The notes beneath the pieces were generated by a model, which saw only the letters and a program-made list of their open reading frames with translations, ran no database searches and was not told where the DNA came from. This document shows, piece after piece, positions 582 through 22,693 of a stretch of 64,000 nt of DNA. Within the stretch, counting starts at the first letter, position 1; the number at the start of each line of letters is the position of its first letter. Both the position numbers and the translations under genes were made by a program. Origin of the DNA: Paracoccaceae bacterium (GTDB lineage: Bacteria; Pseudomonadota; Alphaproteobacteria; Rhodobacterales; Rhodobacteraceae); the NCBI GenBank assembly GCA_052387855.1, contig JBQTIT010000007.1:56922-120921 (forward strand), written 5' to 3'.

Positions 582-641
582 TTGTCAAATCCCGAAAATA
601 CACGCTATGTTTGGTCGAGATTTAATTCCGGAGGCGTCCAG

Positions 642-2426
642 ATGATCGGACTTGAATTGAGCCAGACCGCGCAGCCCGTCGTCGCCCTGACGATTCTTGC
701 CGTGATGTTCGCGTTGTTCGTTCGCGAGACCTATCCGATGGAGGTTGTGGCGCTTTCGGGCGCGGCCGTGATGGTCGTTTTGGGCATTCTGCCGATCAGC
801 GCGGCGTCGTCGGTGCTGTCAAACTCGGCGCCCTGGACCATTGCGTTGATGTTCATGGTGATGGGCGGGCTGGTGCGCACCGGCGCCGTGGAGATGATCA
901 TCGGGCTGGCCGAGCGTCACGTTGGCGACCGGCCCAAGACGACGATCGTCATCCTGTTCAGCTTCATCGCGCTTGCCTCGGCCTTCATGAACAACACGCC
1001 GCTGGTCGCGGTCATGATCCCGGTGGTCATTCAGATCGCGATGAAGATTGGCTCCTCCCCGTCCAAGCTGTTGATCCCGCTGAGCCATATGACGGTACTT
1101 GGCGGCATGATCACCCTGATCGGGACTTCGACCAACATTCTGGTCGACGGGGTGGCGGTCAAGGAGGGCATGGCGCATTTCAGCATGTTCGAAATCGCCC
1201 CGCTCGGCGTTGCCGTAACGCTGGCGGGCGGGCTCTACATGGCGCTGTTCGCCGCCCGCCTTCTGCCGGACCGGCAGACCATGGCGACGATGCTGGGCGA
1301 CCGCAAGCGCATGAAGTATTTCACCGAGGTTGCCATTCCCGAGGATTCGGTGCTGGTCGGCAAGCCCGTGTTGCAGGTCCAGCAGTTCAAACGCAGCGGC
1401 GTGCGGGTGATCGACGTTCTGCGCGGCGATGCCAGCCTGCGGCGCGATCTGGCCGTCGTGGTCCTGGAGGCCGGCGACCGCGTGGTTCTGCGCACCGAGA
1501 TGAGCGAGCTTCTGGGCATGCAGAACCGCACCGACATGCGTCTGGTGGACAAGCTTTCCTCGGTCGAAACCGAGACGGTCGAGGTGCTGATCACGCCCGG
1601 ATGCCGGATGGTCGGCCGCACCTTGGGCGAATTGCGCCTGCGCCGCCGCTATGGCGTCTACGTTCTGGCGGCGCACCGGCGCAGCCAGAACATCGGGCGG
1701 CAACTGGATGAGCTGGTGGTCCAGCTTGGCGATACGCTGTTGCTTGAGGGCACGCAGCAGGACATCAAGCGTCTGGCCGAGGACATGGACATGGTCGACG
1801 TCAGCCATCCGACGCAAAAGGCCTTTCGCCGGCACAAGGCGCCACTGGCCATAGGGGCGCTGGCCCTGGTCGTGCTCTTGTCCTCGCTCGATGTGGCGCC
1901 GATCCTGGTGCTGGCCTTCCTGGCGGTCAGCCTGATCCTCTTGACGCGCTGCGTGGACAGCGACGAGGCGCTGGGCTTTGTCGACGGGCGCCTGATGGCG
2001 ATGATCTTTGCCATGCTGGCGGTGGGCGAGGGGCTGGACCAGTCCGGCGCGGTGGCCCTGATCGTTGCCGCCGTGCAGCCCTGGATGGAAGGGCTTCCGC
2101 CCTTTGCCATGATCCTTGCGATCTACCTGCTGGGTCTGGTTCTGACCGAGTTTCTGTCGAACAACGCAGTGGCAGTGATCTACACCCCGATCGTCATTCA
2201 ATTGGCCAACCAGTTGGGCGTTGACCCGCGCCCCTTTGTCGTGGCGGTGATGTTCAGCGCCACCCTGGCCTTTGCCACCCCGATCGGCTATCAGACCAAC
2301 ATGATGGTCTACGGGCCCGGCGGCTACAAGTTCACGGACTTTACCCGCATCGGTCTGCCGCTGAACGTGATCATCTGGCTGTTGTGTTCGGCGCTGATCC
2401 CGCTGATCTGGCCGCTTTACCCCTGA
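642..2426 (+). CDS. SLC13/DASS-type anion permease with two central TrkA-C (RCK_C) domains
   Basis: ATG 642 is preceded by GGAGG at 629-633. Hydrophobic N- and C-terminal halves flank two soluble repeats (VLVGKPVLQVQQFKRSGVRVIDVLRGD...GDRVVLRTE and MVGRTLGELRLRRRYGVYVLAAHRR...GDTLLLEGT), which is typical of TrkA-C inserts. Confidence 0.8.
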   Translation: MIGLELSQTAQPVVALTILAVMFALFVRETYPMEVVALSGAAVMVVLGILPISAASSVLSNSAPWTIALMFMVMGGLVRTGAVEMIIGLAERHVGDRPKTTIVILFSFIALASAFMNNTPLVAVMIPVVIQIAMKIGSSPSKLLIPLSHMTVLGGMITLIGTSTNILVDGVAVKEGMAHFSMFEIAPLGVAVTLAGGLYMALFAARLLPDRQTMATMLGDRKRMKYFTEVAIPEDSVLVGKPVLQVQQFKRSGVRVIDVLRGDASLRRDLAVVVLEAGDRVVLRTEMSELLGMQNRTDMRLVDKLSSVETETVEVLITPGCRMVGRTLGELRLRRRYGVYVLAAHRRSQNIGRQLDELVVQLGDTLLLEGTQQDIKRLAEDMDMVDVSHPTQKAFRRHKAPLAIGALALVVLLSSLDVAPILVLAFLAVSLILLTRCVDSDEALGFVDGRLMAMIFAMLAVGEGLDQSGAVALIVAAVQPWMEGLPPFAMILAIYLLGLVLTEFLSNNAVAVIYTPIVIQLANQLGVDPRPFVVAVMFSATLAFATPIGYQTNMMVYGPGGYKFTDFTRIGLPLNVIIWLLCSALIPLIWPLYP

Positions 2427-4306: not shown

Positions 4307-4417
4307 GCGCCCGGCACCGCGCCGTTGCGGCGGCGAAAGGGCCGGCGCGCGGCGGGATCAGCGGTTCTTAACAGCCTGTTCCTAGGGTCGCCCCTCAAGC
4401 GCATCCTGGAGGCCCCC

Positions 4418-6184
4418 ATGTCCGATCAGTCGACGATCCTGTCGCTGCCCCACATTCTGCCGTCACAGGCGCAAAAGCACGTCACCCACAACGAGGCGCT
4501 GCGGCTCCTTGACGTGATGGTGCAACTGTCCGTGACGCAGCGCACGCTCGGCGCGCCTCCGGCCAGCCCGGCGCTGGGGGACCGCCATATCGTCGGGGTT
4601 GCGCCGACCGGGGACTGGGCGGCGCATCAGGACGAGATCGCGCTGTGGAACGGTTCGGCCTGGGAATTCTTTGCCCCCCTTCAGGGCTGGCGCGCCTATG
4701 TCGCGGGCGAAGCGGCGGTCCTGGTCTATGACGGCAGCGGCTGGACCATGCCGGGCGGCATGGCCGAGTTCGACCGTCTGGGCGTGGCCATGCCGGCCGA
4801 TGCCGTCAACAAGCTCGCGGTCGCGGCGCCGGCGGCGCTGTTCACCAACCCCGCCGGCTCGCACCAGATGGCGATCAGCAAGGCGGCGGCGGGCGACACC
4901 GGATCGGTGCTGTTCCAGCAGAACTTTGTCAGCCATGCCGAGATCGGGCTGGTCGGCGACAATGACCTTGCGGTCAAGGTCAGCCCGGACGGGTCCAGCT
5001 TTCAAGGCGCGCTGCGGGCGGACCGCACCAGCGGCCGCGTCACCTTTGACCAGCCGCTGCGGCTGGCGCCGGCCGCCGGCGATGCCGTGGGGGTTGGCGA
5101 CGGCTTTCTGTGGTACAACGCCACCACCGGCAAATTCCGGGCGCGGCAGGCTGGGGCCGATGTCGATCTGATCGGCGCGGGCGCCGGGTCGGGCGATGTC
5201 GTGGGCCCGGCTGCCGCCAGCGACCATGCGCTGGCAAGGTTCGATCTGGCGACGGGCAAGCTGTTGCAGAATTCGGCGGTCACGCTTTCGGATGCGGGCG
5301 ATCTGGCCCTGCCCACGGGCGACTGGCCGGCCGGGGCCTGGACGCTGGCGCGCGCGGCGGGCGCGAACGGCGCGCTCAGCCTGTCCCAGCGCGGGACCGG
5401 GGCGTTGCAGCTTGTCGCCACGGACGCCGCCGAGATCGGGTTTTCCACCAATGGCGCCACACGGGCCCGGCTGTCCGCGACCGGCGCCTTTCTGCCCGGC
5501 GCCAATCTGGGCACCCCGATCGGAGAGCTTGCGACCCGGTTTTCGGAGATCTTCGCCCAGAAGGTGAATCTCGGCTCCACCTCGGCCGACGGGGTCGCTC
5601 TGTCCACCGGGGCCGGTGCGCCCGAAGGTGTGGTGACGGGCAGCGTCGGCTCGGTCTATCTTCGCGGCGACGGCGCGGGCGGGACCAGCCTTTACGTCAA
5701 GGAAAGCGGCGCGGGCAACACCGGCTGGACCGCCTTTCAGGCCGATCGCTGGACCTATCTCAAGTTGGCGGCCGACAGCGTCGTCAGCACCGTCGCCCAT
5801 GCGGATGTGGCCGGGATGTCCTTTACCGCGCTGGCCGACACGGTCTACGAGATCGAGATCTTTGGCGCCATGCAGTCGGCGGCAACGACGACCGGCATCG
5901 GCGTCGCCCTCAAGATCCCCAGCGGCACGGTTGACGGCATGACCATCGTGCCGAACACCACCACCAGCATCCAGGCCGCCATGCAGCGGGCCGACGATGC
6001 CATCGCCGCCCCGACCACGGCGGTCGCCACGGCGGCCGTGAACTGGCCGATCTTCGGCAAGTATCTTGTCGCGGTCGGCGCCACCGGCGGGGCGGTCCAG
6101 CTTCGCCAGCGGTCCGAGGTCGCGGGCAGCAGCACCACCCTGATGGCGGGCCTGCGGATGAAGGTCCGCCAGATCCCCGCCTGA
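4418..6184 (+). CDS. Phage/GTA tail-fibre-like protein (DUF2793-like N-terminus), orphan
   Basis: ATG 4418 lies 5 nt after GGAGG (4408-4412). N-terminus LSLPHILPSQAQKHVTHNEALRLLDVMVQLSV. Fibre-type motifs VVGPAAASDHALARFDLATGKLLQNS and SLYVKESGAGNTGW. A separate C-terminal domain of about 150 aa. Confidence 0.75.
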   Translation: MSDQSTILSLPHILPSQAQKHVTHNEALRLLDVMVQLSVTQRTLGAPPASPALGDRHIVGVAPTGDWAAHQDEIALWNGSAWEFFAPLQGWRAYVAGEAAVLVYDGSGWTMPGGMAEFDRLGVAMPADAVNKLAVAAPAALFTNPAGSHQMAISKAAAGDTGSVLFQQNFVSHAEIGLVGDNDLAVKVSPDGSSFQGALRADRTSGRVTFDQPLRLAPAAGDAVGVGDGFLWYNATTGKFRARQAGADVDLIGAGAGSGDVVGPAAASDHALARFDLATGKLLQNSAVTLSDAGDLALPTGDWPAGAWTLARAAGANGALSLSQRGTGALQLVATDAAEIGFSTNGATRARLSATGAFLPGANLGTPIGELATRFSEIFAQKVNLGSTSADGVALSTGAGAPEGVVTGSVGSVYLRGDGAGGTSLYVKESGAGNTGWTAFQADRWTYLKLAADSVVSTVAHADVAGMSFTALADTVYEIEIFGAMQSAATTTGIGVALKIPSGTVDGMTIVPNTTTSIQAAMQRADDAIAAPTTAVATAAVNWPIFGKYLVAVGATGGAVQLRQRSEVAGSSTTLMAGLRMKVRQIPA

Positions 6185-6280: not shown

Positions 6281-7594
6281 ATGAAGATCGCGATGATCGG
6301 GACGGGCTATGTCGGGCTTGTCTCAGGGGTGTGTTTTTCCGACTTTGGCCATGACGTGGTCTGCGTCGACAAGAACCCCGACAAGATCGCGGCCCTTCAG
6401 CGCGGCGAGGTTCCGATCTTCGAGCCGGGGCTTGACCAGCTTCTGGCCAGGAACATCGCCGCCGGGCGGCTGGGCTTCACGCTCGATCTGGCCGCGGCGG
6501 TGGCGGGGGCGGATGCCGTCTTCATCGCGGTGGGCACGCCGGCGCGGCGCGGCGATGGCCATGCCGACCTGAGCTTTGTCATGCAGGCGGCGGCCGAGAT
6601 CGGCCGGGCGCTGACCGGACCTGCGGTGATCGTGACCAAGTCCACGGTTCCGGTCGGCACCAACCGCAAGCTGGCCGCGGCGATCCGCGCCGCCAATCCG
6701 GATGCCGACTTCGACGTCGCCTCGAACCCCGAGTTCCTGCGCGAGGGCGCGGCCATCGACGACTTCATGCGCCCGGACCGCGTGGTGGTCGGGGTCGAGA
6801 GCAAGCGGGCGGAAAAGGTGCTGGCCGACATCTACCGGCCGCTGTTTCTGCGCGAGTTTCCGATCGTCTTCACCGGCCTGGAAAGCGCCGAGATGATCAA
6901 ATACGCCGCCAACGCCTTTCTGGCCGCCAAGATCACCTTCATCAACGAGATCGCCGCGCTCAGCGAGCGGACCGGCGCCGACATCAAGGAAGTGGCCCGG
7001 GGCATCGGCCTTGACGGGCGGATCGGCAACAGGTTCCTGCACGCGGGTCCCGGCTATGGCGGAAGCTGCTTTCCCAAGGATACCAGGGCCTTGGCGCGGA
7101 TCGGGCAAGAGCACGGCGTGCCGATGCAGATCACCGAGACGGTGATCAAGGTCAACGAAGAGATCAAGCGGCGGATGATCGACAAGATCGTCGATCTGTG
7201 CGGCGGGGTGGTCAGCGGCAAGACGATCGGCGTGCTTGGGGTGACGTTCAAGCCCGACACCGACGACATGCGCGAGGCGCCCAGCCTGACCATCGTCCCC
7301 GCGCTGGTGGGCGCCGGGGCGCGGCTGCGCGTGGCCGACCCGCAGGGCCGGCGCGAGGGCGAGGCGCTGTTGCCGGGGGTGAAGTGGGTGGACAGCGCCT
7401 ATCAGGCGGCGCAGGGGGCCGACCTGCTGGTGATCCTGACCGAGTGGAACGAATATCGCGGGCTGGACCTGCAACGGCTGGCGCGCCGGATGACCCGCCC
7501 CGCCATGGCCGACCTGCGCAACCTCTACGACCCGGCCGAGGTCCTGGCCGCCGGATTCGTGGCCTATGTCGGCGTCGGGCGCCAGGGGACCTGA
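6281..7594 (+). CDS. ugd: UDP-glucose 6-dehydrogenase
   Basis: MKIAMIGTGYVGLVSGVCFSDFGHDVVCVDK Rossmann N-terminus and the catalytic GGSCFPKD motif. 437 aa. Confidence 0.95.
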   Translation: MKIAMIGTGYVGLVSGVCFSDFGHDVVCVDKNPDKIAALQRGEVPIFEPGLDQLLARNIAAGRLGFTLDLAAAVAGADAVFIAVGTPARRGDGHADLSFVMQAAAEIGRALTGPAVIVTKSTVPVGTNRKLAAAIRAANPDADFDVASNPEFLREGAAIDDFMRPDRVVVGVESKRAEKVLADIYRPLFLREFPIVFTGLESAEMIKYAANAFLAAKITFINEIAALSERTGADIKEVARGIGLDGRIGNRFLHAGPGYGGSCFPKDTRALARIGQEHGVPMQITETVIKVNEEIKRRMIDKIVDLCGGVVSGKTIGVLGVTFKPDTDDMREAPSLTIVPALVGAGARLRVADPQGRREGEALLPGVKWVDSAYQAAQGADLLVILTEWNEYRGLDLQRLARRMTRPAMADLRNLYDPAEVLAAGFVAYVGVGRQGT

Positions 7595-7687: not shown

Positions 7688-10600
7688 ATGCAGTCGGCAC
7701 GCATGATCCTTTGTCTTGGTCCGCACCGGACCGGCACCTCTGCCGTGGCGGCGGCGCTTGCGGCCCTTGGAGCCGAGACCGGTATCGCCTGGGCCGATGC
7801 CAGCGCGGAAGGCGCCAGGGGTTCTTTCGAGCATCCGGGCCTGGTCGCGCTGAACGAGCGCCTTCTGGCGGCCTTGGGCGGGGCGTGGGATTCGGCGGTC
7901 TTTCGGGGCGGCCCGGCCATCGCAGCGGCGGGGAGCGGGCTGGATCCGCTGCGCGCCGAGGCGCTGGACCTTTTGCGCCGCAGCTTCCGCCCCGGGCAGA
8001 CCGCGCTGCTGATGGACCCAAGGCTGTGCCTGCTGCTCGATTTCTGGCTGCCGGTGATCGCCGAGGCGGGGTTTTCGCGGATCGACATGGTGCATGTGCT
8101 GCGCGATCCCCTGGCGGCGGCGCTGTCGCACCGGCGGCGCAGCCGGCGCCGGCCGGAGGGCGGCGATTTCGGCGCCGAACTGCCCGAGGGCGCGGCGCTG
8201 TGGCTGTCCTGCATGGGCCAGATGTGGGACGGCTTTGATCGCGGGCGCCATCTGGTGGTGTCCTTTGATGCCCTGCTCGGCCAGCCCGGAGCCACACTGC
8301 GGCGGCTGGCCGGATTTGCCGGGCTGCCTGTCGATGAAGCACGCATCGCCGCCGCCTCGGCCGGAGTCCTCGATCCGGCCTTGACGGGGCCCCCGCCGGC
8401 GCCCCTGGACCGGGCGGCGGTCGAACAGGCCCTGCCGCAGGCGCCGGGCGCCTTTGCGGCGCTGATGCCGCTTGCGGCGAAGGGCGCGCTTTCCCGCGCC
8501 GATGTTGCTGCCGTCTGTGGTCTGGCCCTGGCCGCCGGCCCGGCGATCGAGCGCATCCAGAGCGCCGCGCTGGCCCGGCTGCCGGCCAGCCGGCGCGCCC
8601 CGGCCGCGGCGGCGGCGCGGCCCGCGCCGCAGCGCGCGGCGGGCCGGTTGGCGCGCGCCGCTTGGGCGGGCATCGGCGCCGGCTGGATTCGCGTCAACCA
8701 TCTGGTCCGGTGGGCCCATCAGGGGGTCTCGGCCCGCGCGCCCCGCTGCGCCGAGCGTCTGCGGCGCCTGCTGTGGCCCGCCCTCGCGGCCGCCAACCTG
8801 GCCATCCTGGGAACAAGACATGTTCCCGCCCCGCGCACCACGATCGCCCCCAAGCCGGGGCAGACCATCCATCCGTTCGACTATCAGGCGCCGATGCCGG
8901 GCGGGCCCTATCGCCCGCTCGTCTCGGTCATCGTGCCGAACTACAACCACGCCCCGTTCCTGCGTCAGCGGCTGGACAGCATCTATGGCCAGAGCTGGCC
9001 CCGTTTCGAGGTCATCCTGTTGGATGACGGCTCCGGCGACGACAGCCGTGCCATCTTGCAGGACTACGCCGCGCGCCATGCCGACCGCACGCGGGTGATC
9101 CTGAACGACAAGAATTCGGGCAGCGCCTTTCGCCAATGGGAAAAGGGGATGGCGGCCGCGCGGGGCGATCTGATCTGGATCGCCGAGAGCGACGACTGGT
9201 GCTCGGCCAATTTTCTGGAAACGCTGGTGCCGTTCTTTGCCAACCCGGCCGTGCAACTGGCCTATGCGCCGTCCGTTTTCATGAACGGTGCCGGCGATCG
9301 GCAGATCTGGTCCATGGCCGAATACCTTTCTGATCTGGGGCCCGAGCGTTGGGACAAGGCCTTTGTCATCCCCGCGCCCAGGATCGTGCGCGAGGCTTTT
9401 GCCGAACGGAACATCATCCCCAACGTCTCGTCGGCGCTCATGCGCCGGATCGAGCGGCCCGAGGCGCTGGAGGCGGATGTCTGGCGCGGCATGCGCACCT
9501 GCGGCGACTGGGTGTTCTATCTGAACCTGATGCGCGGGGGCCTTCTGGCCTATTCGCCCGACGCGCAGAATTTCTACCGGATGCACGGGGCCAACACCTC
9601 GGCTCTCTCGCACACGACCGACAGCTATTACATCGAACACGAGACGGTCGCCCGCTGCGTGCAGCGTCACTACTCGGTCGACCCTTTGGTGTTTCAGCGC
9701 CAGCGTCAGGCCTTGATCCGGCACTGGACCCGCAAGCGGCCCCGCTTTGTGTCGGCCGAGTTCGATGCCTGCTACAGCCTGCCCAGGATCATGGCCGAGG
9801 CCAGGCTGCGCAAGCCGCGCCTGATGATGGCCGGGTTCGCCTTTTGCTCGGGCGGCGGCGAGACCTTTCCCATCACCCTGGCCAATCTGATGAAGTCGGC
9901 CGGCTACGATGTGACCTATCTCAACTGCCGCCAGGCGCCGGAGGTTCCCGGCATTCGCGGCCTGCTGGCCCGTGACATTCCGGTGGTGACGAATTTCGAG
10001 GACCTGAACGGCATCCTGCGCGATTTCGAGATCGAGGTGATCCACTCGCATCACGCCTGGACCGACAACACCATCCTTGATCTTATGCCCGAGAGCTCGC
10101 CGGTCAAGACGGTGATCACCCTGCACGGCATGTACGAAACCCTGACGGACGACCAGTTGCGCCAGACGCTGCCCAGGCTGGACCGACGCACCGGCGCGAT
10201 GGTCCATGTCGCGGAAAAGAACATTTCCGCCTGGACCAGGCTCGGCAGGCCGATTCCCCGGCAGATGAGGCAGATCGACAACGCGCTGGCCGATGGGCCG
10301 GTCACTCCGGTGGCGCGCGCGGCGCTGGGGATCGGGCCGGGGGCATTTGTGCTTGTCGTGGTTTCGCGCGCCATCGCGCCCAAGGGCTGGCAAGAAGCGA
10401 TCGAGGCCGTCACCCTGGCACGGCGGACGCTAAAGCGGGATCTGCACCTGGTGCTGGTCGGCGACGGGCCGGAATGCGAGCGGCTGCGCGGCAAGACGCC
10501 GCCTTTCGTGCATCTTGAGGGCTTTCGCAGCAACCCGCGCGACTATTTCGCCATGGCCGACGCCGGCCTGCTGCCGACGCGCTTTCCCTGCGAAAGCTTT

Positions 10601-10915
10601 CCGCTCGCCGTCATCGACTGCCTGATGACCGGCCGGCCCATGATCGCCACCCATATCGGCGAGATCCGGCGCATGCTGACGGGTGAAAACGGACCGGCGG
10701 GTGAGCTGTTCGATCTGGTGGACGGGCGGATTCCGGTCGATGTCCTTGCCGGCATCATCGTCAGGCTTGCCGCTGACCCGCAGGCACTGGGCCGCCTGAC
10801 GGCCGAGGTCGCCTCGGCCGCCCGTCAGTTCGACCCGGTCCGCATGCGCGACGGATATGATCACGTCTATCATTTTGCCACGGGCCGCGTGGCTGGCCTT
10901 CTGGCAGCGGAATGA
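7688..10915 (+). CDS. Tri-domain fusion of a sulfotransferase-like domain (about aa 6-215), a GT2 glycosyltransferase (about aa 409-640) and a GT4/GT1-type glycosyltransferase (about aa 710-1075)
   Basis: One uninterrupted 1075-codon frame. N-terminal domain has LGPHRTGTS (5'-PSB-like) and HVLRDPLAAALSH (3'-PB-like). GT2 domain has VSVIVPNYNHAPFL...ILLDDGSGDDS...AESDD. GT4 domain has EGFRSNPRDYFAMADAGLLPTRFPCESFPLAVIDCLMTGRP (E-x7-E region). Confidence 0.85.
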   Translation: MQSARMILCLGPHRTGTSAVAAALAALGAETGIAWADASAEGARGSFEHPGLVALNERLLAALGGAWDSAVFRGGPAIAAAGSGLDPLRAEALDLLRRSFRPGQTALLMDPRLCLLLDFWLPVIAEAGFSRIDMVHVLRDPLAAALSHRRRSRRRPEGGDFGAELPEGAALWLSCMGQMWDGFDRGRHLVVSFDALLGQPGATLRRLAGFAGLPVDEARIAAASAGVLDPALTGPPPAPLDRAAVEQALPQAPGAFAALMPLAAKGALSRADVAAVCGLALAAGPAIERIQSAALARLPASRRAPAAAAARPAPQRAAGRLARAAWAGIGAGWIRVNHLVRWAHQGVSARAPRCAERLRRLLWPALAAANLAILGTRHVPAPRTTIAPKPGQTIHPFDYQAPMPGGPYRPLVSVIVPNYNHAPFLRQRLDSIYGQSWPRFEVILLDDGSGDDSRAILQDYAARHADRTRVILNDKNSGSAFRQWEKGMAAARGDLIWIAESDDWCSANFLETLVPFFANPAVQLAYAPSVFMNGAGDRQIWSMAEYLSDLGPERWDKAFVIPAPRIVREAFAERNIIPNVSSALMRRIERPEALEADVWRGMRTCGDWVFYLNLMRGGLLAYSPDAQNFYRMHGANTSALSHTTDSYYIEHETVARCVQRHYSVDPLVFQRQRQALIRHWTRKRPRFVSAEFDACYSLPRIMAEARLRKPRLMMAGFAFCSGGGETFPITLANLMKSAGYDVTYLNCRQAPEVPGIRGLLARDIPVVTNFEDLNGILRDFEIEVIHSHHAWTDNTILDLMPESSPVKTVITLHGMYETLTDDQLRQTLPRLDRRTGAMVHVAEKNISAWTRLGRPIPRQMRQIDNALADGPVTPVARAALGIGPGAFVLVVVSRAIAPKGWQEAIEAVTLARRTLKRDLHLVLVGDGPECERLRGKTPPFVHLEGFRSNPRDYFAMADAGLLPTRFPCESFPLAVIDCLMTGRPMIATHIGEIRRMLTGENGPAGELFDLVDGRIPVDVLAGIIVRLAADPQALGRLTAEVASAARQFDPVRMRDGYDHVYHFATGRVAGLLAAE

Positions 10916-10966: not shown

Positions 10967-13171
10967 GTGAAACCGGCGCTGATCCTTCATGTCGGAATGG
11001 ACAAGACCGGCACGACGGCGATCCAGTCCGCACTGGACCGGGCCTGCCGGTCCTTGGCGTCCGAACATGGGGTCCTGGTGCCGCGCACCGGGTCGTGGAG
11101 CGACCATTCCCATCATCGCTTTGCCTTTGCCGCCTTCGGCATCAACGGATATTCCTTTGCCGACCTAGCGGGGCTGCTTGCAAGCCTGGAGGACGAGGTT
11201 ACCGGCGCTGGATGTGGCCGGGTTCTTCTGTCGTCAGAATGCCTGTACAACCTGCCCGGCAAGCCGGGCATGGAGGCGTTCATGGCCGGCCTGCGCCGCA
11301 TATTTGGCGCGATCCGCGTGATCGTCTATCTTCGCCGGCAGGACACTTGGGTTGAATCGCGCTACCGTCATTCGGTGGTCAGCGGGCGCGAGATCCCCCT
11401 CGGGCAGCTTTGCCAGCCAAGGTACGCCGACTATCTGCCCCCTCTTGACCGCTGGGCAGAGGTGGTGGGCCTGGCGAACATGGTGGTGCGGCCCTACGAG
11501 ACCGCCCAGTTCCCGATGGGCGACATCGCGGCGGATTTCGCGCAGGCGGCCGGGCTGCCTGCCGGCGCGCTGCCCAGCCTGCGCGGCATCCGGGCCAACG
11601 CGGCCCTGTCGTTTGAAGTGGTCCAGCTTCGCGCCGCCTTCAATCATCTTCGCCTGCCGCAGGAAACCACGGGCGATCTGAACGAGGTGCTGGCGCATGC
11701 CGTTGCCGGCGGGCCGGCCGAGCGGTTCTTCGTCTCGCCCCGGCAGGCCGCCCAGCTTGTCGAACGCTATTCGGAATCCAACCGGCAGATCGCCCTGCGC
11801 TATATGGGTCGGATGGACGGGCGCGCCTTTGTCGATCCGCCGCCCGCCGCCGGCGCCCATGCCGTCCCCGAGATCGGCAGGGCCCGGATGATCGAGATCC
11901 TCGGCACGGTCCGACAGCGCAAGCCAGAGCTTCTGCGCCGCGCCGCGAGGGCCGGGGACGAATTGCGCCTTGCGGATCTGCGGTTCCGCGAGGCGGCGGC
12001 GCAGGTCTGGACCCTTGTGAGCGCCCTGCGGGACATGGGAATCGGCGGCGAGGTCGCGGCCGCCGCGCGGTCGGCGCCCCTGCCGGGGGCACGGCCAGCG
12101 GCGCGGGAAATATTCGTTCATTTCGGGGTCTACAAGACCGGATCAAGCGCGATTCAAGAGACCCTTTTCAACCACGCCGCCGGTCTTTCGGACGGCGCCT
12201 ATCTGGGCGCAGGGGTCGCGAACCACTCGCTGCTGGTGCGGACGGCGGTGCTAGTTGCCAAGCGGGCGCAGGAAAGGTTCGCGCCCGGCGACAGCCTGGA
12301 AAAGGTCCAGCAGCGCAAGGAACATGCGGCCGAAAGGTTGCAGCATGCGCTGGCCGCCGCCGCGCCGGCGGGCAGGGTCATCCTGTCGGCCGAGGCGATC
12401 TGCGGCTTCACCGCCAGAGAGCTTGAAACGCTCAAGGACTTCCTGACCCCCCATGCCGAACAAATCCGGTTTTTCGGCTACATGCGCGATCCGGTCACGC
12501 TGACGGCCTCGGTCTTTCAAGAGCAGCTCAAGAGCCGAAGGCCGGTGGGCTTCACCTTTGGCCAGGGGGGCGAGCCGGGGCCGCCGCTGCTTTACAGGGT
12601 GGTGGACCGGCTTGACGCGCTGTTCGGCGCGGCGGCGGTGACCGTTTTTCCCTTTGATCCCGCCACTTTCCCGGGCGGCGACGTGGTGCGCCATTTTCTG
12701 GCTGCGACCGGGATCCGGGGCGAGGGGCTTGAGCCCGTCCGAAGCAACGAAAGCCTGAACCTGCTGGCGGTCAAGGCGCTGTATAGTTACCGACACCTGC
12801 GCTCTGCCGCAGAGTCCCCCGATCTGGGCAAGAGCCGCGCGGCCTTCATTTCGGACCTGCGCGGGCTCAGGGGGCCCTCGTTCGGCTTTCATCCCGACAT
12901 CAACGCCCGCATCAGGGCCAATTGCGGCGACTGGGATGACTGGGCGGCGCGCCGTCTTGGCCGCCCGCTTGCCTACCTGTCCACCGATGCCCAGGGCGGT
13001 ATCCGCACCGAGGCGGACCTGCTGACCTTTTCGGACCAGGACCTTGCCGAACTTGCCCGCTACGGCGAACGGCACGGGATCAATGCGATAACCGCCGCCT
13101 CTGGCGCCGAGGATGTCGCCGACCTTGTCCAGCGGGTCAGGCAGCGCTTTGCCAGGGGGATTGCGGATTAG
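10967..13171 (+). CDS. Protein made of two tandem sulfotransferase-fold modules (function unknown)
   Basis: GTG start at 10967. Module 1 has LHVGMDKTGTTAIQ plus YLRRQDTWVESRY. Module 2 (from about nt 12107) has VHFGVYKTGSSAIQ plus YMRDPVTLTAS. It lies in the capsule locus. Confidence 0.7.
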   Translation: MKPALILHVGMDKTGTTAIQSALDRACRSLASEHGVLVPRTGSWSDHSHHRFAFAAFGINGYSFADLAGLLASLEDEVTGAGCGRVLLSSECLYNLPGKPGMEAFMAGLRRIFGAIRVIVYLRRQDTWVESRYRHSVVSGREIPLGQLCQPRYADYLPPLDRWAEVVGLANMVVRPYETAQFPMGDIAADFAQAAGLPAGALPSLRGIRANAALSFEVVQLRAAFNHLRLPQETTGDLNEVLAHAVAGGPAERFFVSPRQAAQLVERYSESNRQIALRYMGRMDGRAFVDPPPAAGAHAVPEIGRARMIEILGTVRQRKPELLRRAARAGDELRLADLRFREAAAQVWTLVSALRDMGIGGEVAAAARSAPLPGARPAAREIFVHFGVYKTGSSAIQETLFNHAAGLSDGAYLGAGVANHSLLVRTAVLVAKRAQERFAPGDSLEKVQQRKEHAAERLQHALAAAAPAGRVILSAEAICGFTARELETLKDFLTPHAEQIRFFGYMRDPVTLTASVFQEQLKSRRPVGFTFGQGGEPGPPLLYRVVDRLDALFGAAAVTVFPFDPATFPGGDVVRHFLAATGIRGEGLEPVRSNESLNLLAVKALYSYRHLRSAAESPDLGKSRAAFISDLRGLRGPSFGFHPDINARIRANCGDWDDWAARRLGRPLAYLSTDAQGGIRTEADLLTFSDQDLAELARYGERHGINAITAASGAEDVADLVQRVRQRFARGIAD

Positions 13172-13249: not shown

Positions 13250-14077
13250 TTAGCCTTCGAGCGCGTCGCGCACAACCCGGTGCAGCATCACCATGCCGAT
13301 GGTAAAGGTGGACAGCGCCACCATCAGCACGAACAGCGACGAGACATCCCCGCGCCCGACCTCGGGGTAAAAGGCGGCGCGCATCAACTCGATCGGATGC
13401 GCGACGGGGTTCCACCACAGATAGGACTTGTAGGGCTCGGGAACGATGTCGATCGGGATCAGCACCCCCGAGGCCAGCATCAGCGGCCGGGTAAAGACCG
13501 ACCACAGGTTTTCGTAGCTGGGAACAAGCAGGAACAGGACCGCGTTCAGGCAGCCCACGCCAAAGCCCAGGCAGCCGGCCAGGGCCAGCGCCTCGATCAC
13601 CAGTAGCGCGTCGATGCTGGGGTTGAGATCGTAAAGGCCGATGATGCTGATCGCCAGAAAGGCAAAGACCACCATCTGGATGAAGAGATGCAGGATCGCC
13701 CGGGCAATGATCGTGTCCAGCGCGCGGACGGTCGGAAAGCTCAGCAGCGGCCGCGAAAACTTTGGCGCCGACGCCGCCTTTGACGACAGCGCGGCAAAGA
13801 CGCCAAAGGGCACGATCCCTGTCATGTAGAACAAGGGAAAGCTGTCACCGACCGGCGGCACGCGCGAGATGACGCTGAACACAAGGCTCATCAGGATGAT
13901 CGTCGCGATGGGGTCGATGAAGGCCCAGAGAAATCCCAGCGAGGTTCGGCTTTCGCTGGTTTCCAGCTCGCGCAGGATCAGCGCGCCAAGCACCCGCACC
14001 GTCTTGAAGTGCCGGCTGCGCGGCACCCCCGGCGCGCGGCGGTCCGGTTCGGACAAGGCGCTTTCGGTCCTGGGCAT
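13250..14077 (-). CDS. kpsM: Capsule polysaccharide ABC-2 exporter permease
   Basis: ILRELETSESRTSLGFLWAFIDPIATIILMSLVF parallels E. coli KpsM LREIRTRFGKFRLGYLWAILEP. The start was chosen at ATG 14077, which follows AAGGAAAGGA. The longer ORF reaching 14173 is less likely. Confidence 0.85.
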   Translation of the reverse strand: MPRTESALSEPDRRAPGVPRSRHFKTVRVLGALILRELETSESRTSLGFLWAFIDPIATIILMSLVFSVISRVPPVGDSFPLFYMTGIVPFGVFAALSSKAASAPKFSRPLLSFPTVRALDTIIARAILHLFIQMVVFAFLAISIIGLYDLNPSIDALLVIEALALAGCLGFGVGCLNAVLFLLVPSYENLWSVFTRPLMLASGVLIPIDIVPEPYKSYLWWNPVAHPIELMRAAFYPEVGRGDVSSLFVLMVALSTFTIGMVMLHRVVRDALEG

Positions 14078-14189
14078 GCGGTCCTTTCCTTGGCCGCGGC
14101 ACATGGCAAGGCCCTGCCAGCCCACGGCTTGGGGCTTGTACCAGCCCTGCCAATTCCATAACAAGGGCATCACCCAGGATCAACCGGCC

Positions 14190-15479
14190 ATGGCCCGCCC
14201 CTGGTGTCGAACCCGGAAGGCTCGCTTGACACAGCAAGGCGCAGTGACACCACCGCCCGGCCCCGGCCCCGGCCAAAAGGCCGCCTTGGCCGTGCCCGGC
14301 CCCGCGCGCGGCGCCGGCCCGGCGCGCAAGGCCCCGCGCGAGGTGCCGGCGGCCGAAGTGCGCCCGGCGATCGCGCAGGCCGGTCTGCGCCGGCGCCATT
14401 ATGGCGTGCTGATGTCCTTTATCGCGCTCGTCGTCCTGCCGGTCGCGCTCAGCGCCTGGTATCTGTGGACGCGCGCCGTGGATCAGTACGAAAGCCGCAT
14501 CGGCTTTGCCGTGCGGGCCGAGGGCCAGGTCGGCACCCCTGATCTGCTGAACGGCCTGCTGGGCCCGGCGTCCAGTTCCACCGCCGAGGACATGCACATC
14601 CTCAGCGCCTTTATCCTCAGCCAGGAGCTTGTCAGCCGCATCGACGCGCGTCTGGACCTGCGCCAGCGCTATTCGCTCTTTCCGGCCGATCCGGTCTATT
14701 CCCTCGCGCCCGAAGGCACGATCGAGGAGCTGGTGGATTACTGGGAGCGGATGGTCGTGGTCGACTACTCTTCGACCACAGGTCTGATGGAGCTGACAAT
14801 CTACGCCTTTACCCCGGCGGATGCCCAGGCCATCGCCGCCTTGGTGCTGGAGGAAAGCAGCGCCGTCATCAACCAGCTTTCCGCCATCGCGCGCGAGGAC
14901 AGCACCCGTTTCGCCCGCGAGGCGCTGGACACCGCGCGCGCGCGGGCCGGCGAGGCGCGGGCAGCCGTGGCGCGCTTTCGCGCCACCAACAAGGTTGCCG
15001 ACCCCTCGGCCGACATCGCCTCGCATATGGGCGTGGTCTCGTCGCTGCAACAGCAGCTTGCCGGGGCGCTGGTCGAGCTGGACATGCTGCGCCTGGGCAC
15101 CAAGGCGGACGATCCGCGCATCGGCCCGCTGGAGCGGCGGATCGAGGCGATCGAGGGCCGCATCGACCAGGAACGCGCCGACCTTGGCATCGGCATCGAC
15201 GGCGCGGGCTTTGCCGAGGTGCTGGGCGAATACGAGCGACTCAAGGTCGATCAGACTTTTGCCGAGCAGGCCTATCTTGCCGCGCTTTCGGCGCATGATG
15301 CGGCGATGGCCGTGGCGGGGCGCAACAGCCGCTATCTGGCGACCTTCGTGCCGCCCACCCTGGCCGAGGCCTCCACCGCGCCGGTGCGGCCGCTGGTGCT
15401 GCTGGTGATCGGCATCATCGCTCTCTTGGGCTGGTCCTCGCTGGTGCTGATCTTTTACGCGCTGCGCGACCGCCGATAG
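14190..15479 (+). CDS. kpsE: Capsule export inner-membrane PCP-3 protein (KpsE-like)
   Basis: N-terminal TM segment (YGVLMSFIALVVLPVALSAWYLW), a long coiled periplasmic region and a C-terminal TM segment (LVLLVIGIIALLGWSSLVLIFY). The start is uncertain because the N-terminal Pro/Gly/Ala-rich extension may not be translated. Confidence 0.75.
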   Translation: MARPWCRTRKARLTQQGAVTPPPGPGPGQKAALAVPGPARGAGPARKAPREVPAAEVRPAIAQAGLRRRHYGVLMSFIALVVLPVALSAWYLWTRAVDQYESRIGFAVRAEGQVGTPDLLNGLLGPASSSTAEDMHILSAFILSQELVSRIDARLDLRQRYSLFPADPVYSLAPEGTIEELVDYWERMVVVDYSSTTGLMELTIYAFTPADAQAIAALVLEESSAVINQLSAIAREDSTRFAREALDTARARAGEARAAVARFRATNKVADPSADIASHMGVVSSLQQQLAGALVELDMLRLGTKADDPRIGPLERRIEAIEGRIDQERADLGIGIDGAGFAEVLGEYERLKVDQTFAEQAYLAALSAHDAAMAVAGRNSRYLATFVPPTLAEASTAPVRPLVLLVIGIIALLGWSSLVLIFYALRDRR

Positions 15480-15494: not shown

Positions 15495-16187
15495 ATGATC
15501 GAGCTTGAAAACCTGACCAAGGCCTACCGCTACAACGGTCAGCCGAAATACATCGTGCGGGGCGTCAACGCGGTCTTTTCGGCGGGAAAGGTCACGGCGC
15601 TTCTGGGGCGCAACGGCGCGGGCAAGTCGACCTTGCTGCAACTCATTGCCGGCACGATCAACCCGGATTCGGGCCGCGTAAGGACTCAAGGCATGATCTC
15701 GTGGCCGATCGGGCTGGCGGGCGGGCTGCACCCCGAATTGACGGGGGTGCAGAATGTCCGCTTCATCGCCCGGGTCTACGGTGTCGACACCGATGAGATG
15801 GTCGATTTCGTCGGCGACTTTGCCGAGCTGGGGCCAAGCTATCGCCAACCGGTGCGCACCTATTCCTCGGGCCAGCGGGCGCGGCTGAACTTCGGGATGT
15901 CGATGGCGATCCGGTTCGATTGTTACCTGATCGACGAGATCACATCGGTCGGCGACGCCGGATTCCGCGCCAAGAGCGCCCAGCTTTTCGCCGACCGGAT
16001 GTCAAGCGCCGGGGCGATCTATGTCAGCCATTCGCTTTCGGCGATCCGGCAATCCTGCGATGCGGCCATGGTCCTTGAGGCCGGCCAGTTGCGGTATTTC
16101 GACAATGTCGACGAAGCGATCGAGACGCATGAGCGCAACATTCTGGGACAGAATTACAGGATGGTGAAGCTGCTCGATCCGGATTGA
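15495..16187 (+). CDS. kpsT: Capsule export ABC transporter ATP-binding protein
   Basis: Walker A GRNGAGKST, signature YSSGQRARL and Walker B CYLIDE. 230 aa, directly downstream of kpsE. Confidence 0.9.
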   Translation: MIELENLTKAYRYNGQPKYIVRGVNAVFSAGKVTALLGRNGAGKSTLLQLIAGTINPDSGRVRTQGMISWPIGLAGGLHPELTGVQNVRFIARVYGVDTDEMVDFVGDFAELGPSYRQPVRTYSSGQRARLNFGMSMAIRFDCYLIDEITSVGDAGFRAKSAQLFADRMSSAGAIYVSHSLSAIRQSCDAAMVLEAGQLRYFDNVDEAIETHERNILGQNYRMVKLLDPD

Positions 16188-17848
16188 ACCAGGATGTCGG
16201 TGATCGGCCCGACATCTTCGAGAACCCAGATCACCTGGCCGGTGGGTAGATAGGTCACGGTGGCATCCAGCGCAGAGCCGCCACGGACCGATGACAGGAC
16301 TGCCGAGAACTGATCGGCGCTGGCCCCCGGCTGCCCGAACACCAGCACGTCGGCGTGGTGCAGGCAGTAGTCGGTGACCAGATCGGTGCCGTCAGCGGCC
16401 AGCCCGCTGTGAAAGAACCGGTCCAGCCCCGCCCCGCCCGTCAGCGTGTCGTTGCCGCCGTCGCCCTGAAGCCAGTCGTCGCCGGCATGGCCGGTCAACT
16501 GGTCGTCCCCCTCGCCCCCCGACAAAAGGTCATCGCCCGCCCCGCCGAAAAGCAGGTCCTTTCCCGCGCCGCCGTAAAGCTGATCCTCGCCGTTCAGCCC
16601 CTCAAGCCAGTCATTGCCCGCCCCGCCCTCAAGCCAGTCGTTGCCGCTTTGGCCGATCAGGCTGTCGTTGCCGTCGCCGCCCAGCATCCGGTCGTTGCCT
16701 GCCCCGCCGTGCAGAACATCGGCGCCCGTCCCGCCGTCAACGACGTCATCGCCGTTGTTGCCCTGGATCGCATCGTTCCCGTCACCGCCGCGCAGACCGT
16801 CATTGCCCGCGCGCCCGGCAAGCGTGTCGTTGCCGCCGCCGCCGGCAAGGTCGTCATCCCGGCCGCCGCCCAGGATGAAATCGTCGTGGGCCGAGCCGAC
16901 GAAGGCCTCGATGGAGATGAAACTGTCCCCCATGGCCCAGCCAAGGTTGGCTTCGGCCTGGTTCAGGTCGATGCGGACCGCCTCGGGCGCGGCGGAGTAA
17001 TCCACGGTGTCCCTGCCGCTGCCGCCGTCCAGGTGATCGCCCTCGGCCGATCCAAGGATCACATCGTCGCCGGCCTGGCCCAGGATGGTGTCGCTCTCGC
17101 CGGTGCCAAAGATCGTATCGGCGCCAGCGCTGCCCAGGATCGGCGCGGGGCTGCCGCCCAGGCGAAAGATGTAGAGCCCCGGAACCCCGGTATTTCCCGG
17201 CGTGACCGGCAGGGCCAGCAGGCCCGCCTCGTCCCCCGAGGGGCCGATGGTGACCACGTTGCCCAAGCTGTCCATGCTGTAGCCGATCTGCGCCGGGCTG
17301 CCGCCGGTTCCGCCCGTGCCGCCCTCAAGATCGCCCGAGGTCCATTCGATGCTTTCATAGCGGATGACCACATCCATCGCGCCGCCCCCGGCGTCATGGA
17401 GTTGCACCTGAAAGGTGTTGGTGGCGGTGGCGTTGCGCCGGTAGAAACCGACATCCTCCCAGGTGATGGTGATGCAGTCGGCAACCGTGTCGATGTCCAG
17501 CCAGATCTGGCCGCTTTCCGCCCCCTCGCCGTCGATCCGCGTGTCGACATCGGCCAGAAAAGGCGCGATGAAAGGCATGGTCAGCGCGGCAAGGTCATCC
17601 GGCAGCACCGCGACCCCCTCGCCAAAGGTGATCAGGCCGTCGGTTGAAACATAGACCTCGCCCGCGCCGTAAACCTCATCCCCGATCACGATGCCATCTT
17701 CAAAGACCGCCGTCACGTCGATGGCGGCAAACCCCTCATCCCCGCGCGGCAAGGCAATCTCGCCATAACCCGACGGGCCGCCGAGGGTGTCTACGGCGGT
17801 GCCGTCGCCGGTGATCTCGTCCATGGCGTCTCCTTTCCCGGGTATCAC
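16154..17848 (-). CDS. Secreted RTX-type calcium-binding protein with N-terminal nidogen-like (NIDO) domain
   Basis: IAPFLADVDTR...ITITWEDVGFY...NTFQVQLHD matches the NIDO pattern. This is followed by more than 12 GGxGxDxL nonapeptides (GGAGNDRMLGGDGNDSLIGQSGNDWLEGGAGNDWLEG...). Confidence 0.85.
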   Translation of the reverse strand: MIPGKGDAMDEITGDGTAVDTLGGPSGYGEIALPRGDEGFAAIDVTAVFEDGIVIGDEVYGAGEVYVSTDGLITFGEGVAVLPDDLAALTMPFIAPFLADVDTRIDGEGAESGQIWLDIDTVADCITITWEDVGFYRRNATATNTFQVQLHDAGGGAMDVVIRYESIEWTSGDLEGGTGGTGGSPAQIGYSMDSLGNVVTIGPSGDEAGLLALPVTPGNTGVPGLYIFRLGGSPAPILGSAGADTIFGTGESDTILGQAGDDVILGSAEGDHLDGGSGRDTVDYSAAPEAVRIDLNQAEANLGWAMGDSFISIEAFVGSAHDDFILGGGRDDDLAGGGGNDTLAGRAGNDGLRGGDGNDAIQGNNGDDVVDGGTGADVLHGGAGNDRMLGGDGNDSLIGQSGNDWLEGGAGNDWLEGLNGEDQLYGGAGKDLLFGGAGDDLLSGGEGDDQLTGHAGDDWLQGDGGNDTLTGGAGLDRFFHSGLAADGTDLVTDYCLHHADVLVFGQPGASADQFSAVLSSVRGGSALDATVTYLPTGQVIWVLEDVGPITDILVQSGSSSFTIL

Positions 17849-19539: not shown

Positions 19540-19637
19540 TGCCCTCGCCCCCGCCCCCCCACGCGCGGTAGAAAAGCGCCAGGGTGGCGCGGGTCAATGG
19601 CCCTGCCCGGGCGCGGCAAGGGCTGCTCGCGCTGGTC

Positions 19638-20402
19638 CTACGCTCGCGCGGGAAAGCGAAGGTCGGCCGACTGGGTCGAAAGCCGCGCCGGATCGCGCGC
19701 GGGAACCTCGGCCACCAGCAGCGCCGGCCCCTCGCCGGCCTGTGCCAGCACCTCGCCATGCGGCCCGGCGATCAGCGAGCCGCCGACATAGGTCAGATCG
19801 CCCTCGGCGCCGCAGTAATTTGCATAGACGATGCTCACCCCATGGCCCGCCGCCATCGCCGGCACCGTGTGGCGCACGACATGGACAAAGGGCATCATGT
19901 TGGCGGTCGGCACCAGGATCACCTCGGCGCCGTCATCGGCCAGAGCCTTGATATGCGGCGCAAATTCCACGTCGTAGCAGATCAGCACCGCCGCCTTGAC
20001 CCCCCCCAGCCAGAAAGTGACATAGCCGTCACCCGGTCGATAGACCGCCCGCTCTCGCGGGCCGTAAAGCTGGATCTTGCGATAGTTGGCCACCACCGCG
20101 CCATCCGCGCCCAGAACCAGTGCCGCGTTGTAGATGCCGTCCGCCGCCGCCTCGGCATAGCCGATCACCAGCGCGCAGCCGGCGGCGCGGGCGGAGCCTG
20201 CAAGCGCCTCCAGCACGGCCGAACCCGGCGCCAGCGCCTGACCGGCAATGTCCGGCTGGTTGTAGCCGGGCAGGTACACCTCGGGCACCACCAGCACGGC
20301 CGCGCCCATCGCCCCGGCACCGCGCAGCGCGGCACCGACCGCCGCCAGTGCGGCCGGCACATCGCCCCCGCACGAGGGGCCTTGCAAGAGCGCCAGCTTC
20401 AT
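19638..20402 (-). CDS. Carbon-nitrogen hydrolase (nitrilase-superfamily amidase)
   Basis: MKLALLQG...[12 protein letters not shown] (catalytic Glu region), YRKIQLYG (Lys) and [14 protein letters not shown] (Cys) motifs. Confidence 0.85.
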
Positions 20403-21061: not shown

Positions 21062-21214
21062 GGCACGCTGCGGTTGCGACACGCGCGCGAGATTAGCCGA
21101 TCCCTCCGCAACGGCCAGAGCCAAAGCGCGCGCCGGTCCAACAAGGGCGTTGACCACCCGCGGCGCTTCTTTCACTCTCGCCTGACCGCCGCCGTCGCGA
21201 AAGGAAATCCGATC

Positions 21215-22693
<1,479 letters not shown>

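Follow-up and report, generated by a model that had tools for sequence, protein, structure and literature searches.

Domain architecture of the fusion protein

The subject of this study is a gene in a 64,000-nucleotide window of a Paracoccaceae metagenome-assembled genome (MAG; assembly GCA_052387855.1, contig JBQTIT010000007.1, positions 56,922 to 120,921), the product of which fuses an N-terminal sulfotransferase (ST) domain to two glycosyltransferase (GT) modules, of the GT2 and GT4 families, and which lies beside genes for a capsule-type exporter. It is a single unbroken open reading frame (ORF; 7688..10915, forward strand) that begins with ATG and codes for 1075 residues; both the frame and the GC content at third codon positions (GC3 = 0.84) are uniform, the latter being level with that of the adjacent genes. 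The protein is identical to one from a Paracoccaceae MAG (P0001) that is named only 'glycosyltransferase'.

An earlier reading of this DNA, made from its letters without database searches (the sequence-only reading), had described one uninterrupted frame with an ST-like, a GT2 and a GT4 domain. All the motifs that it quoted were recovered when the translation was read directly, namely GPHRTGTS (aa 11-18) and VLRDPLAAALSH (aa 137-148) in the N-terminal domain, VSVIVPNYN (aa 412-420), DDGSGDDS (aa 446-453) and ESDD (aa 500-503) in the GT2 module, and E-x7-E (aa 992-1000) in the GT4 module. The three domain assignments likewise proved right: Pfam models score above their curated cut-offs for Sulfotransfer_3 (aa 119-217, 30.0 bits, cut-off 27), Glycos_transf_2 (aa 413-541, 93 bits), Glyco_transf_4 (aa 722-825), Glycos_transf_1 (aa 877-998) and Glyco_trans_1_4 (aa 887-1002), and for the ST an AlphaFold2 (AF2) model and Foldseek comparisons agree. 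The GT2 module spans aa 412-700 and the GT4 module aa 701-1075, with the DxD of the former and the E-x7-E of the latter intact. The supposed Ala/Arg/Pro-rich linker at about aa 220-400, on the other hand, is no plain linker and resolves into three distinct segments. The first (aa 231-303) is a helical subdomain of the ST, which is alignable across the family and is modelled as helices with a predicted local distance difference test (pLDDT) score above 90 in most 10-residue blocks. The second is the scar of an in-frame deletion, and the third (aa 316-411) is an N-terminal extension of the GT2-GT4 block that is also present in unfused relatives (P0055, P0058 and P0030) and is possibly membrane-associating.

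Fold of the N-terminal domain

The AF2 model of residues 1-300, built from a 24-sequence alignment, has a pLDDT of 92.9, and 50 of its 50 best Foldseek matches in the PDB are STs dependent on 3'-phosphoadenosine 5'-phosphosulfate (PAPS), with TM-scores of 0.44-0.49. These fold neighbors include the ST domains of olefin synthase and CurM, TPST1/2, Teg12/14, StaL, the cytosolic SULTs and the 3-O-sulfotransferases (3-OSTs). The family profile also matches the 3'-phosphate-binding (3'-PB) region (RxPxDxxxS) of many solved SULTs, represented by R139 and S147 in the window protein. Across 154 relatives the residues G11, H13, R14, G16, T17 and S18 of the loop that binds the 5'-phosphosulfate (5'-PSB loop) are kept in all aligned copies, bar one Ser at T17, and the PAPS-binding and putative catalytic residues R14, E48, K109, R139 and S147 are invariant in 150 relatives. 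Judged by this model, the N-terminal domain is a genuine PAPS-type ST fold. The sequence-only reading had allowed that it might turn out to be some other P-loop fold, which is not what was found, because all the best structural matches and the profile matches are STs. A P-loop kinase could be ruled out, as every fold match is an ST. A GT99/Kdo (3-deoxy-D-manno-octulosonic acid) transferase domain like that of the true WbbB was ruled out too: the window protein, the family profile and an Aeromonas protein described below match only STs in the PDB.

The TPSTs and the ST domains of CurM and olefin synthase share with this family not only the fold but also the 5'-PSB and 3'-PB motifs and a constellation of Arg, Glu and Lys residues. 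They differ from it in that sequence identity is only 15-18%, the present family has an additional C-terminal helical subdomain, the acceptor in our case is presumably a glycan, and the window copy has a Met in place of the Lys.

Relatives with the same fusion and a spacer of variable length

The same N-terminal domain is present in 61 of the 120 best homologs of the window protein. Their sources are MAGs of Paracoccaceae, isolates of Halieaceae (Halioglobus, Haliea and Seongchinamella) and Guyparkeria. The arrangement is common and not singular: it is shared by at least 56 relatives, and its ST belongs to a large subfamily.

In these relatives a constant ~660-670 aa separate the start of GT2 from the C-terminus, but the N-terminal part may be as short as 411 aa, in the window protein and P0002 (the shortest), or as long as 848 aa. 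An in-house heuristic (background, 5% of GT-block residues) picked out a heptad-like stretch that separates ST from GT2 in 51 of 56 ST fusions. When read directly, the variable stretch consists of charged, proline-free heptads with internal duplications, and is followed by a conserved 'SRSWR[IL]TAPLR' motif and then by the 'GW[IV]R.NH.ARR.Y' helices. Even among close relatives of 82-87% identity the coiled coil measures 0, 0, 109 and 152 aa. More distant GT2-GT4 relatives have, at their N-terminus, either an S-adenosylmethionine (SAM)-dependent methyltransferase followed by a coiled coil or no additional domain. For one unfused relative (P0058, locus L006), no separate ST-coil gene was found upstream on that short contig.

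Loss of the coiled coil and divergence of the sulfotransferase in the window lineage

Compared with P0004, an 82% identical protein of 1209 aa encoded at the syntenic locus L004, the window protein is short by 134 codons (402 nt), in frame. The deleted stretch corresponds to the entire coiled coil together with the SRSWRLAAPLR motif, leaving the junction 'SRRA-PAAAAARPAPQ-RAAGRLAR', and the heptad heuristic flags 0 residues between ST and GT2 in both the window protein and P0002. As the latter, of 87% protein identity, carries the same deletion on a contig (L005) assembled independently from another sample, the loss of the coil is a real trait of the lineage and not due to collapse during assembly.

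The ST domain of the short forms also departs from the family. The long forms P0003 and P0004 show zero deviations at family-conserved ST positions, as against N42G, F46S, K109M and F227V in the window protein and E41G, N42H, F46S, W67R and P156T in P0002. Both Asn42 and Lys109 are unchanged in 150 of 150 sequences aligned at those columns (out of 154 domain copies from diverse relatives), and a one-letter change (AAG>ATG) at window position 8013 accounts for K109M. Lys109 closes the strand that precedes the 'KDPR' motif. In TPST2, substitution of Lys158, Arg78 or Glu99 by Ala strongly cuts activity (PMC10951654). Motif order, spacing and the strand-end location make Lys109 the probable counterpart of TPST2 Lys158, and Met109 of the window protein would by its position occupy the site of the catalytic Lys (TPST2 Lys158 / EST Lys106).

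Conserved-column replacements specific to the short forms are concentrated in the ST (Fisher p=0.001 for 7/47 versus 5/234 in the GT block, in a test devised after the data had been seen), and a plain comparison of conserved columns is not significant (ST 4/47 versus GT 10/234, p=0.26). Nei-Gojobori ratios of nonsynonymous to synonymous substitution rates (dN/dS) are 0.44 for the ST, 0.30 for GT2 and 0.23 for GT4 between the two short forms, and 0.20, 0.19 and 0.22, respectively, between two long forms. By these ratios the constraint on the ST in the coil-less lineage is relaxed, not abolished. Given that the coil is deleted and that Lys109 and Asn42, invariant in 150 relatives, are replaced by Met and Gly, the ST module of the window protein, a candidate chain terminator as argued below, is probably weakened or dead, and probably vestigial.

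Gene neighborhood in the window

The fusion gene belongs to a compact cluster with exporter genes of the kps type (Table 1), which bears out the ATP-binding cassette (ABC)-transporter-dependent setting that the sequence-only reading had proposed; the adjacent ugd that it had named is likewise in place. The permease scores 92 bits with the KpsM model, below the equivalog cut-off of that model, and TIGR01010 (BexC/CtrB/KpsE) gives 197 bits, scored on the 93%-identical KpsE of L004, below its cut-off of 437.5 bits. A search of the 64-kb window gave no cysDNC/cysQ, kpsC/S/D or rml genes; outside the cluster, its remaining 48 kb consist of housekeeping genes. The suggested check for genes of PAPS supply accordingly came out divided: APS (adenosine 5'-phosphosulfate) kinase or cysD/cysNC/cysQ genes occur beside relatives of the fusion, but the window itself has no cysDNC.

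Table 1. Features of the fusion gene and its neighborhood (positions are those of the window)
Feature	Position	Strand	Evidence
Whole fusion: ST module, deletion scar, GT2, GT4	7688..10915	+	ORF, Pfam, identity to P0001
PAPS-type ST catalytic domain, aa 1-230; 5'-PSB loop G11-S18, Glu48, 3'-PB Arg139...Ser147	7688..8377	+	Pfam, AF2, Foldseek
Codon 42, Gly (Asn in 150/150 family members)	7811..7813	+	Alignment
Codon 109, ATG Met (Lys in 150/150 family members; AAG in L004, L005)	8012..8014	+	Alignment
ST helical subdomain, aa 231-303	8378..8596	+	AF2 helices, family alignment
In-frame deletion scar, aa 304-315, 'PAAAAARPAPQ'	8597..8632	+	Comparison with P0004 and L005/P0002
Conserved pre-GT2 helices, aa 316-411, 'GWIRVNH...AERLRRLLWP'	8633..8920	+	Present in unfused GT2-GT4 relatives
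GT2 (GT-A) module, DDGS aa 446, ESDD aa 500	8921..9787	+	Pfam, motifs
GT4 (GT-B) module, E-x7-E aa 992-1000	9788..10915	+	Pfam, motifs
ugd, UDP-glucose 6-dehydrogenase	6281..7594	+	Same position in L003, L004
734-aa protein, two ST-like alpha/beta domains	10967..13171	+	Homolog Pfam, AF2, Foldseek
kpsM-like ABC-2 permease	13250..14173	-	KpsM model
kpsE (BexC/CtrB/KpsE family)	14292..15479	+	Start 14292, not 13869 of the mechanical ORF
kpsT-like ABC ATPase, 230 aa, without carbohydrate-binding module	15495..16187	+	Domain scan
DASS/SLC13-type permease with two TrkA_C (CitMHS, Na_sulph_symp)	582..2426	+	
DUF2793 protein	4325..6184	+	Same position in L003, L004
NIDO-domain/RTX-repeat protein	16154..17848	-	Same position in L003, L004

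Immediately downstream of the fusion lies the gene for a 734-aa protein in which an H-x-G-x-x-K-T-G-[TS]-[TS] motif occurs twice ('HVGMDKTGTT...RRQD...S' and 'HFGVYKTGSS...RDP...S'). It has no Pfam match of its own; its homolog P0125 reaches the Sulfotransfer_4 cut-off, and its N-terminal domain is 29% identical to a protein of Halioglobus maricola that is encoded just after the fusion and has a Sulfotransfer_3 domain as its C-terminal half. The AF2 model of the 734-aa protein (pLDDT 82.5) finds its best Foldseek matches among STs, including the heparan sulfate 3-OSTs, with P-loop kinases at lower probability, so that the kinase alternative is less clearly excluded here than for the fused domain. 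The protein is shorter than its counterparts in L004 (804 aa) and L003 (840 aa), with ~70 residues of the inter-domain linker gone around aa 360-376, in parallel to the deletion in the fusion.

Upstream of the cluster is a DASS/SLC13-type permease. A permease of the same kind is found upstream of the cluster in L003 (121-1905), and in Guyparkeria one lies directly beside cysD-cysNC-cysQ (L002:17262-18992); a search around 80 other ST loci gave none within 6 kb. The permease may import sulfate for use in polysaccharide sulfation.

On its two sides the cluster is flanked by secreted or surface proteins, a DUF2793 protein and a NIDO-domain/RTX-repeat protein, the gene for the latter overlapping the end of kpsT by 34 nt at its 3' end. 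The homolog of a 499-aa RTX protein of L004 is split in the window by a frameshift near 18601-18607: 18041-18607 (+) covers residues 1-189, and 18601-19536 (+), in a different frame, covers residues 188-499. Either the gene is a pseudogene or the MAG sequence is in error here. In L003 (22844+) and L004 (17473-18459) the RTX genes are followed by a gene for a 328-aa NAD-dependent sugar epimerase/dehydratase, which may have provided a sugar for this polymer; it is absent from the window (compared at 19537-19637), where tblastn gave no match. The shortened 734-aa protein, the frameshifted RTX gene and the absent epimerase are signs of further erosion around the cluster. Two of the mechanically called ORFs are overextended at the 5' end, 13869-15479 (+), which contains kpsE, and 20120-22693 (+); the latter would code for 857 aa, has FGGY kinase domains from aa 369 only, and overlaps a CN_hydrolase gene on the opposite strand.

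The sulfotransferase subfamily at large

When 1.84 billion representative proteins were searched with the family profile, 10,891 clusters of this ST subfamily were recovered at E<=1e-30. Among the top 147 clusters, 82 are standalone proteins of 330-650 aa, similar in size to WbdD, with a coiled coil right after the ST in 65 of the 82, and 34 are proteins of at least 1000 aa, with a coiled coil in the same place in 28. A scan of GTDB species genomes gave at least 551 ST loci in many phyla. Within 6 kb, a Wzt with a carbohydrate-binding module (CBM) is present at no fewer than 14 of 80 such loci from diverse genomes, a Wzm at 23, and an APS kinase or CysNC gene at 6. The sugar-supply genes beside the fusion vary by lineage, being ugd, rmlABCD or manC. 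In Guyparkeria the fusion lies in an rmlABCD/GT cluster; ~6 kb downstream of it come cysD, cysNC and cysQ, and a DASS-type (CitMHS+TrkA_C) permease lies between the two. At another locus (L007:8371-20346) manC and a Poly_export (KpsD/Wza-like) gene precede the ST fusion and a gene for an unannotated 1924-aa protein follows it.

A particularly informative member is the 'WbbB' protein of Aeromonas salmonicida (ORF20, 1122 aa; L058:4047-7415, strain ATCC 33658), the N-terminal ~220 residues of which are an ST domain of this subfamily (30% identity, E 4e-21), with the motifs LGMHRSGTS, KGFWED and KDPRLC and with both the coiled coil and the invariant residues intact. The ST is followed by a coiled coil (aa 285-419), a GT1/4-like module and a GT2 module, and the gene adjoins those for a Wzt with the Wzt_C CBM and for a standalone ST. 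An in-frame deletion of wbbB in A. salmonicida A450 led to loss of the O antigen, the published repeat unit of which is without sulfate, as its authors remarked; in the same study aa 130-290 of WbbB were annotated as a 'capsule polysaccharide biosynthesis domain' and the ST went unrecognized (PMC4483657). No similarity was found between this protein and the solved GT99 domain of WbbB. A sulfate-free repeat unit matches what would be expected of a cap added once per chain. A second instructive locus is that of Pseudomonas koreensis B1M1-15 (L022:3821-11581), where the genes run in the order wzm, a wzt with the Wzt_C CBM, one for a 1646-aa protein with an N-terminal ST and RgpF-like and WbsX glycosyltransferase regions, and a standalone APS kinase.

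Comparison with known terminator and polymerase systems

In WbbB of Klebsiella O12, ORF6 of O7 and, in split form, WbdD/WbdA, a coiled-coil ruler carries a terminator distally and the polymerizing GTs at the opposite end (PMC11231755), and coiled-coil methyltransferases of variable length are also known from group 3 kps loci of E. coli (PMC13171606). The relatives of the window fusion resemble WbbB (O12/Raoultella) and ORF6 (O7) in having an N-terminal capping enzyme or its candidate, a central coiled coil the length of which varies between close relatives, two C-terminal GTs, and a setting in an ABC-transporter-dependent pathway. They differ from them in that the candidate capping module is a PAPS-type ST and not a GT99 Kdo transferase or methyltransferase-kinase, and in the order GT2 then GT4; the window copy in addition has no coiled coil, and its export genes are KpsM/T/E without a Wzt CBM. 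There is no detectable sequence similarity of the window protein or its family to the WbbB GT99 domain in the PDB. The ST of the window protein stands N-terminal to the GTs and may have had a terminating function.

The A. salmonicida 'WbbB' shares with the window family the homologous N-terminal ST, the coiled coil (of the relatives) and the presence of two GTs, and is needed for an ABC-transporter-dependent glycan. Its GT1/4-like module nonetheless precedes the GT2 module, in a non-orthologous polymerase block, its coil is intact where that of the window protein is lost, and its partners are Wzm and a Wzt with a CBM. A cap-recognizing CBM of this type is absent from the window ATPase, in contrast to the A. 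salmonicida and P. koreensis relatives. The standalone members of 330-650 aa, with ST and coiled coil, parallel the layout of WbdD (E. coli O9a/K. pneumoniae O3; PMC3482155), but would transfer sulfate from PAPS in place of the phosphate and methyl of its kinase-methyltransferase; in the window protein the candidate terminator is moreover fused to the polymerase. The terminator-ruler-polymerase type of enzyme is already known, and an ST as the terminator is not described in the literature searched, in which no paper tied STs to WbdD-type termination.

Sulfated kps capsules of marine Proteobacteria, namely Cobetia marina KMM 1449 and Vibrio sp. KMM 8419 (PMC11766843, PMC11641403), offer another comparison, as they too combine a kps exporter with STs, and relatives of the window fusion, like these clusters, have cysNC/cysD/cysQ and a permease nearby. 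In them, however, the GTs and STs are separate and sulfate is stoichiometric, on each repeat, and no fused ST-polymerase or coiled coil has been described. Sulfated polysaccharides are also reported for Poseidonocella, of the same bacterial family as the source of the window.

Proposed function and alternative explanations

Taken together, these comparisons suggest that the product of the window gene is, in one polypeptide, a polysaccharide synthase belonging to a kps-type, ABC-transporter-dependent pathway. Its C-terminal GT2 (inverting) and GT4 (retaining) modules would form the polymerase, probably making a backbone in which two linkages, beta and alpha, alternate. In the ancestral protein, we infer, the fused ST would have placed sulfate on a hydroxyl of the terminal sugar once the growing chain spanned the coiled coil, and such a cap would stop elongation and, where Wzt has a CBM, mark the chain for export. 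A cap at the chain end is favored over sulfation of every repeat because the coil is variable, relatives have a methyltransferase in place of the ST, Wzt proteins bear CBMs, and the Aeromonas repeat is free of sulfate. In the present genome the fused ST would be weakened or inactive and the protein mainly a polymerase without length control, and the separate 734-aa protein with two ST domains would be the better candidate for sulfation along the chain in this cluster. The ORF and its domains, the ST fold, the deletion, the substitutions, the architecture of the family and its genomic associations are observations; the capping function, the loss of ST activity and the composition of the polymer are put forward here as interpretation. 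The position of ugd suggests that uridine diphosphate (UDP)-glucuronate may be a substrate; this adjacency holds in close relatives but not in Guyparkeria, Halioglobus or L007. On balance we consider this explanation as a whole, that of a family of terminal-capping STs with a vestigial terminator in the window, to be probable, though by no means strongly so.

Several observations count against it. Sulfate terminators were sought in the literature and none was found, and no member of the subfamily has been biochemically characterized, in line with the statement of the sequence-only reading that no such arrangement was known to have been characterized. The kpsT-like ATPase is without the Wzt_C CBM, so that this cluster gives no sign of a step in which the exporter reads the cap. 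Coils were called with the heptad heuristic and not with a validated predictor, the equivalence of Lys109 and TPST2 Lys158 is deduced from motif order and position, and the enrichment of replacements in the ST carries the post hoc character mentioned above. Lys109 is kept in the coil-less P0002, and the dN/dS of 0.44 for the ST, being below 1, points to some retained constraint, so the domain may remain functional.

The strongest alternative, which was the model of the sequence-only reading, is that the fused ST sulfates every repeat while the GT2-GT4 block polymerizes a glucuronate backbone, yielding a sulfated capsule like a glycosaminoglycan (GAG). The conserved position of ugd, the three ST-like domains of the cluster, its kps-type export genes and the proximity of the coil-less ST to the polymerase all speak for it, and marine kps capsules with sulfate on each repeat are, as mentioned, known. 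Yet a variable spacer and a module that is swappable with methyltransferases are the signature of a terminator and not of a processive decorator; furthermore, the published repeat of the Aeromonas member is sulfate-free, the ST of the window protein has lost two invariant residues, and relatives adjoin rml or manC instead of ugd. The analogy with heparosan and chondroitin polymerases finds little support either: the GAG synthases (KfoC, PmHS, PmCS and KfiA/KfiC) match only generically, in an N-terminal GT2 stretch of ~108 aa (E 2.5e-10 and 8e-10), and the second module of the window protein is GT4, not GT45 or GT2, so that by sequence comparison a GAG-like polymer is not supported for this cluster. 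Of the proposed co-polymerization and O-sulfation of a uronic-acid capsule there remain the ST fold, the kps setting and the adjacent ugd, whereas the family anatomy favors a cap at the chain end and the ST itself is mutated. We therefore regard sulfation of each repeat by the fused domain as unlikely.

Less likely again is that the ST-like domain is non-catalytic in this protein, and possibly throughout the family, serving as a nucleotide- or glycan-binding or oligomerization module that scaffolds the polymerase. The K109M and N42G replacements, a dN/dS below 1 that suggests a retained structural role, and the persistence of the domain after loss of the coiled coil would fit such a role, but the invariance of R14, E48, K109, R139 and S147 in 150 relatives and the APS kinase or cysDNC genes adjacent to it in several loci argue for catalysis in the family, and would confine the non-catalytic idea at most to the coil-less lineage. 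Finally, that the long ORF and short linker are artefacts of MAG mis-assembly, through collapse of repetitive coiled-coil DNA, or of an undetected frameshift is hardly credible, for although the source is a MAG, direct repeats occur in the coiled-coil DNA of relatives and a frameshift affects a nearby RTX gene, the independent contig, at 13% protein divergence, has the same 402-nt in-frame deletion, frame and GC3 are uniform, and non-repetitive coil sequence and the SRSW motif are missing as well.

Implications

If the explanation of the ST as a capping terminator is correct, a wider proposal follows, which we advance tentatively and would place a little short of probable: that many bacteria use sulfate on the non-reducing end, in a way so far unrecognized, as a stop signal for elongation, combined with a coil-based measure of length and, in systems with a Wzt CBM, a license for export, that the sulfate is added by a subfamily of more than 10,000 clusters including the N-terminal domain of the A. 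salmonicida 'WbbB', and that this control is being dismantled in the lineage of the window. The terminators known in ABC-dependent glycans are methyl, phosphate-methyl or Kdo groups. Sulfate would add a fourth kind of cap, by sequence counts a very common one, which would occur in marine bacteria and also in those associated with fish and plants, such as Aeromonas and Pseudomonas. It may also explain 'orphan' ST genes in O-antigen clusters, such as the puzzling one in the A. salmonicida study. A terminal sulfate, being sub-stoichiometric, would escape nuclear magnetic resonance (NMR) analysis of repeat units.

For experimental purposes, the compact P. koreensis locus offers a candidate system in which sulfate capping could be tested in a tractable host, and the natural series of coil lengths in close relatives of the window protein (0, 0, 109 and 152 residues) provides a ready test of the ruler idea. 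The window copy itself is probably a decaying member, and an unpromising source of a GAG-like sulfated capsule; the broader lead to which it points is a very large, unrecognized family of candidate sulfate-capping terminators.

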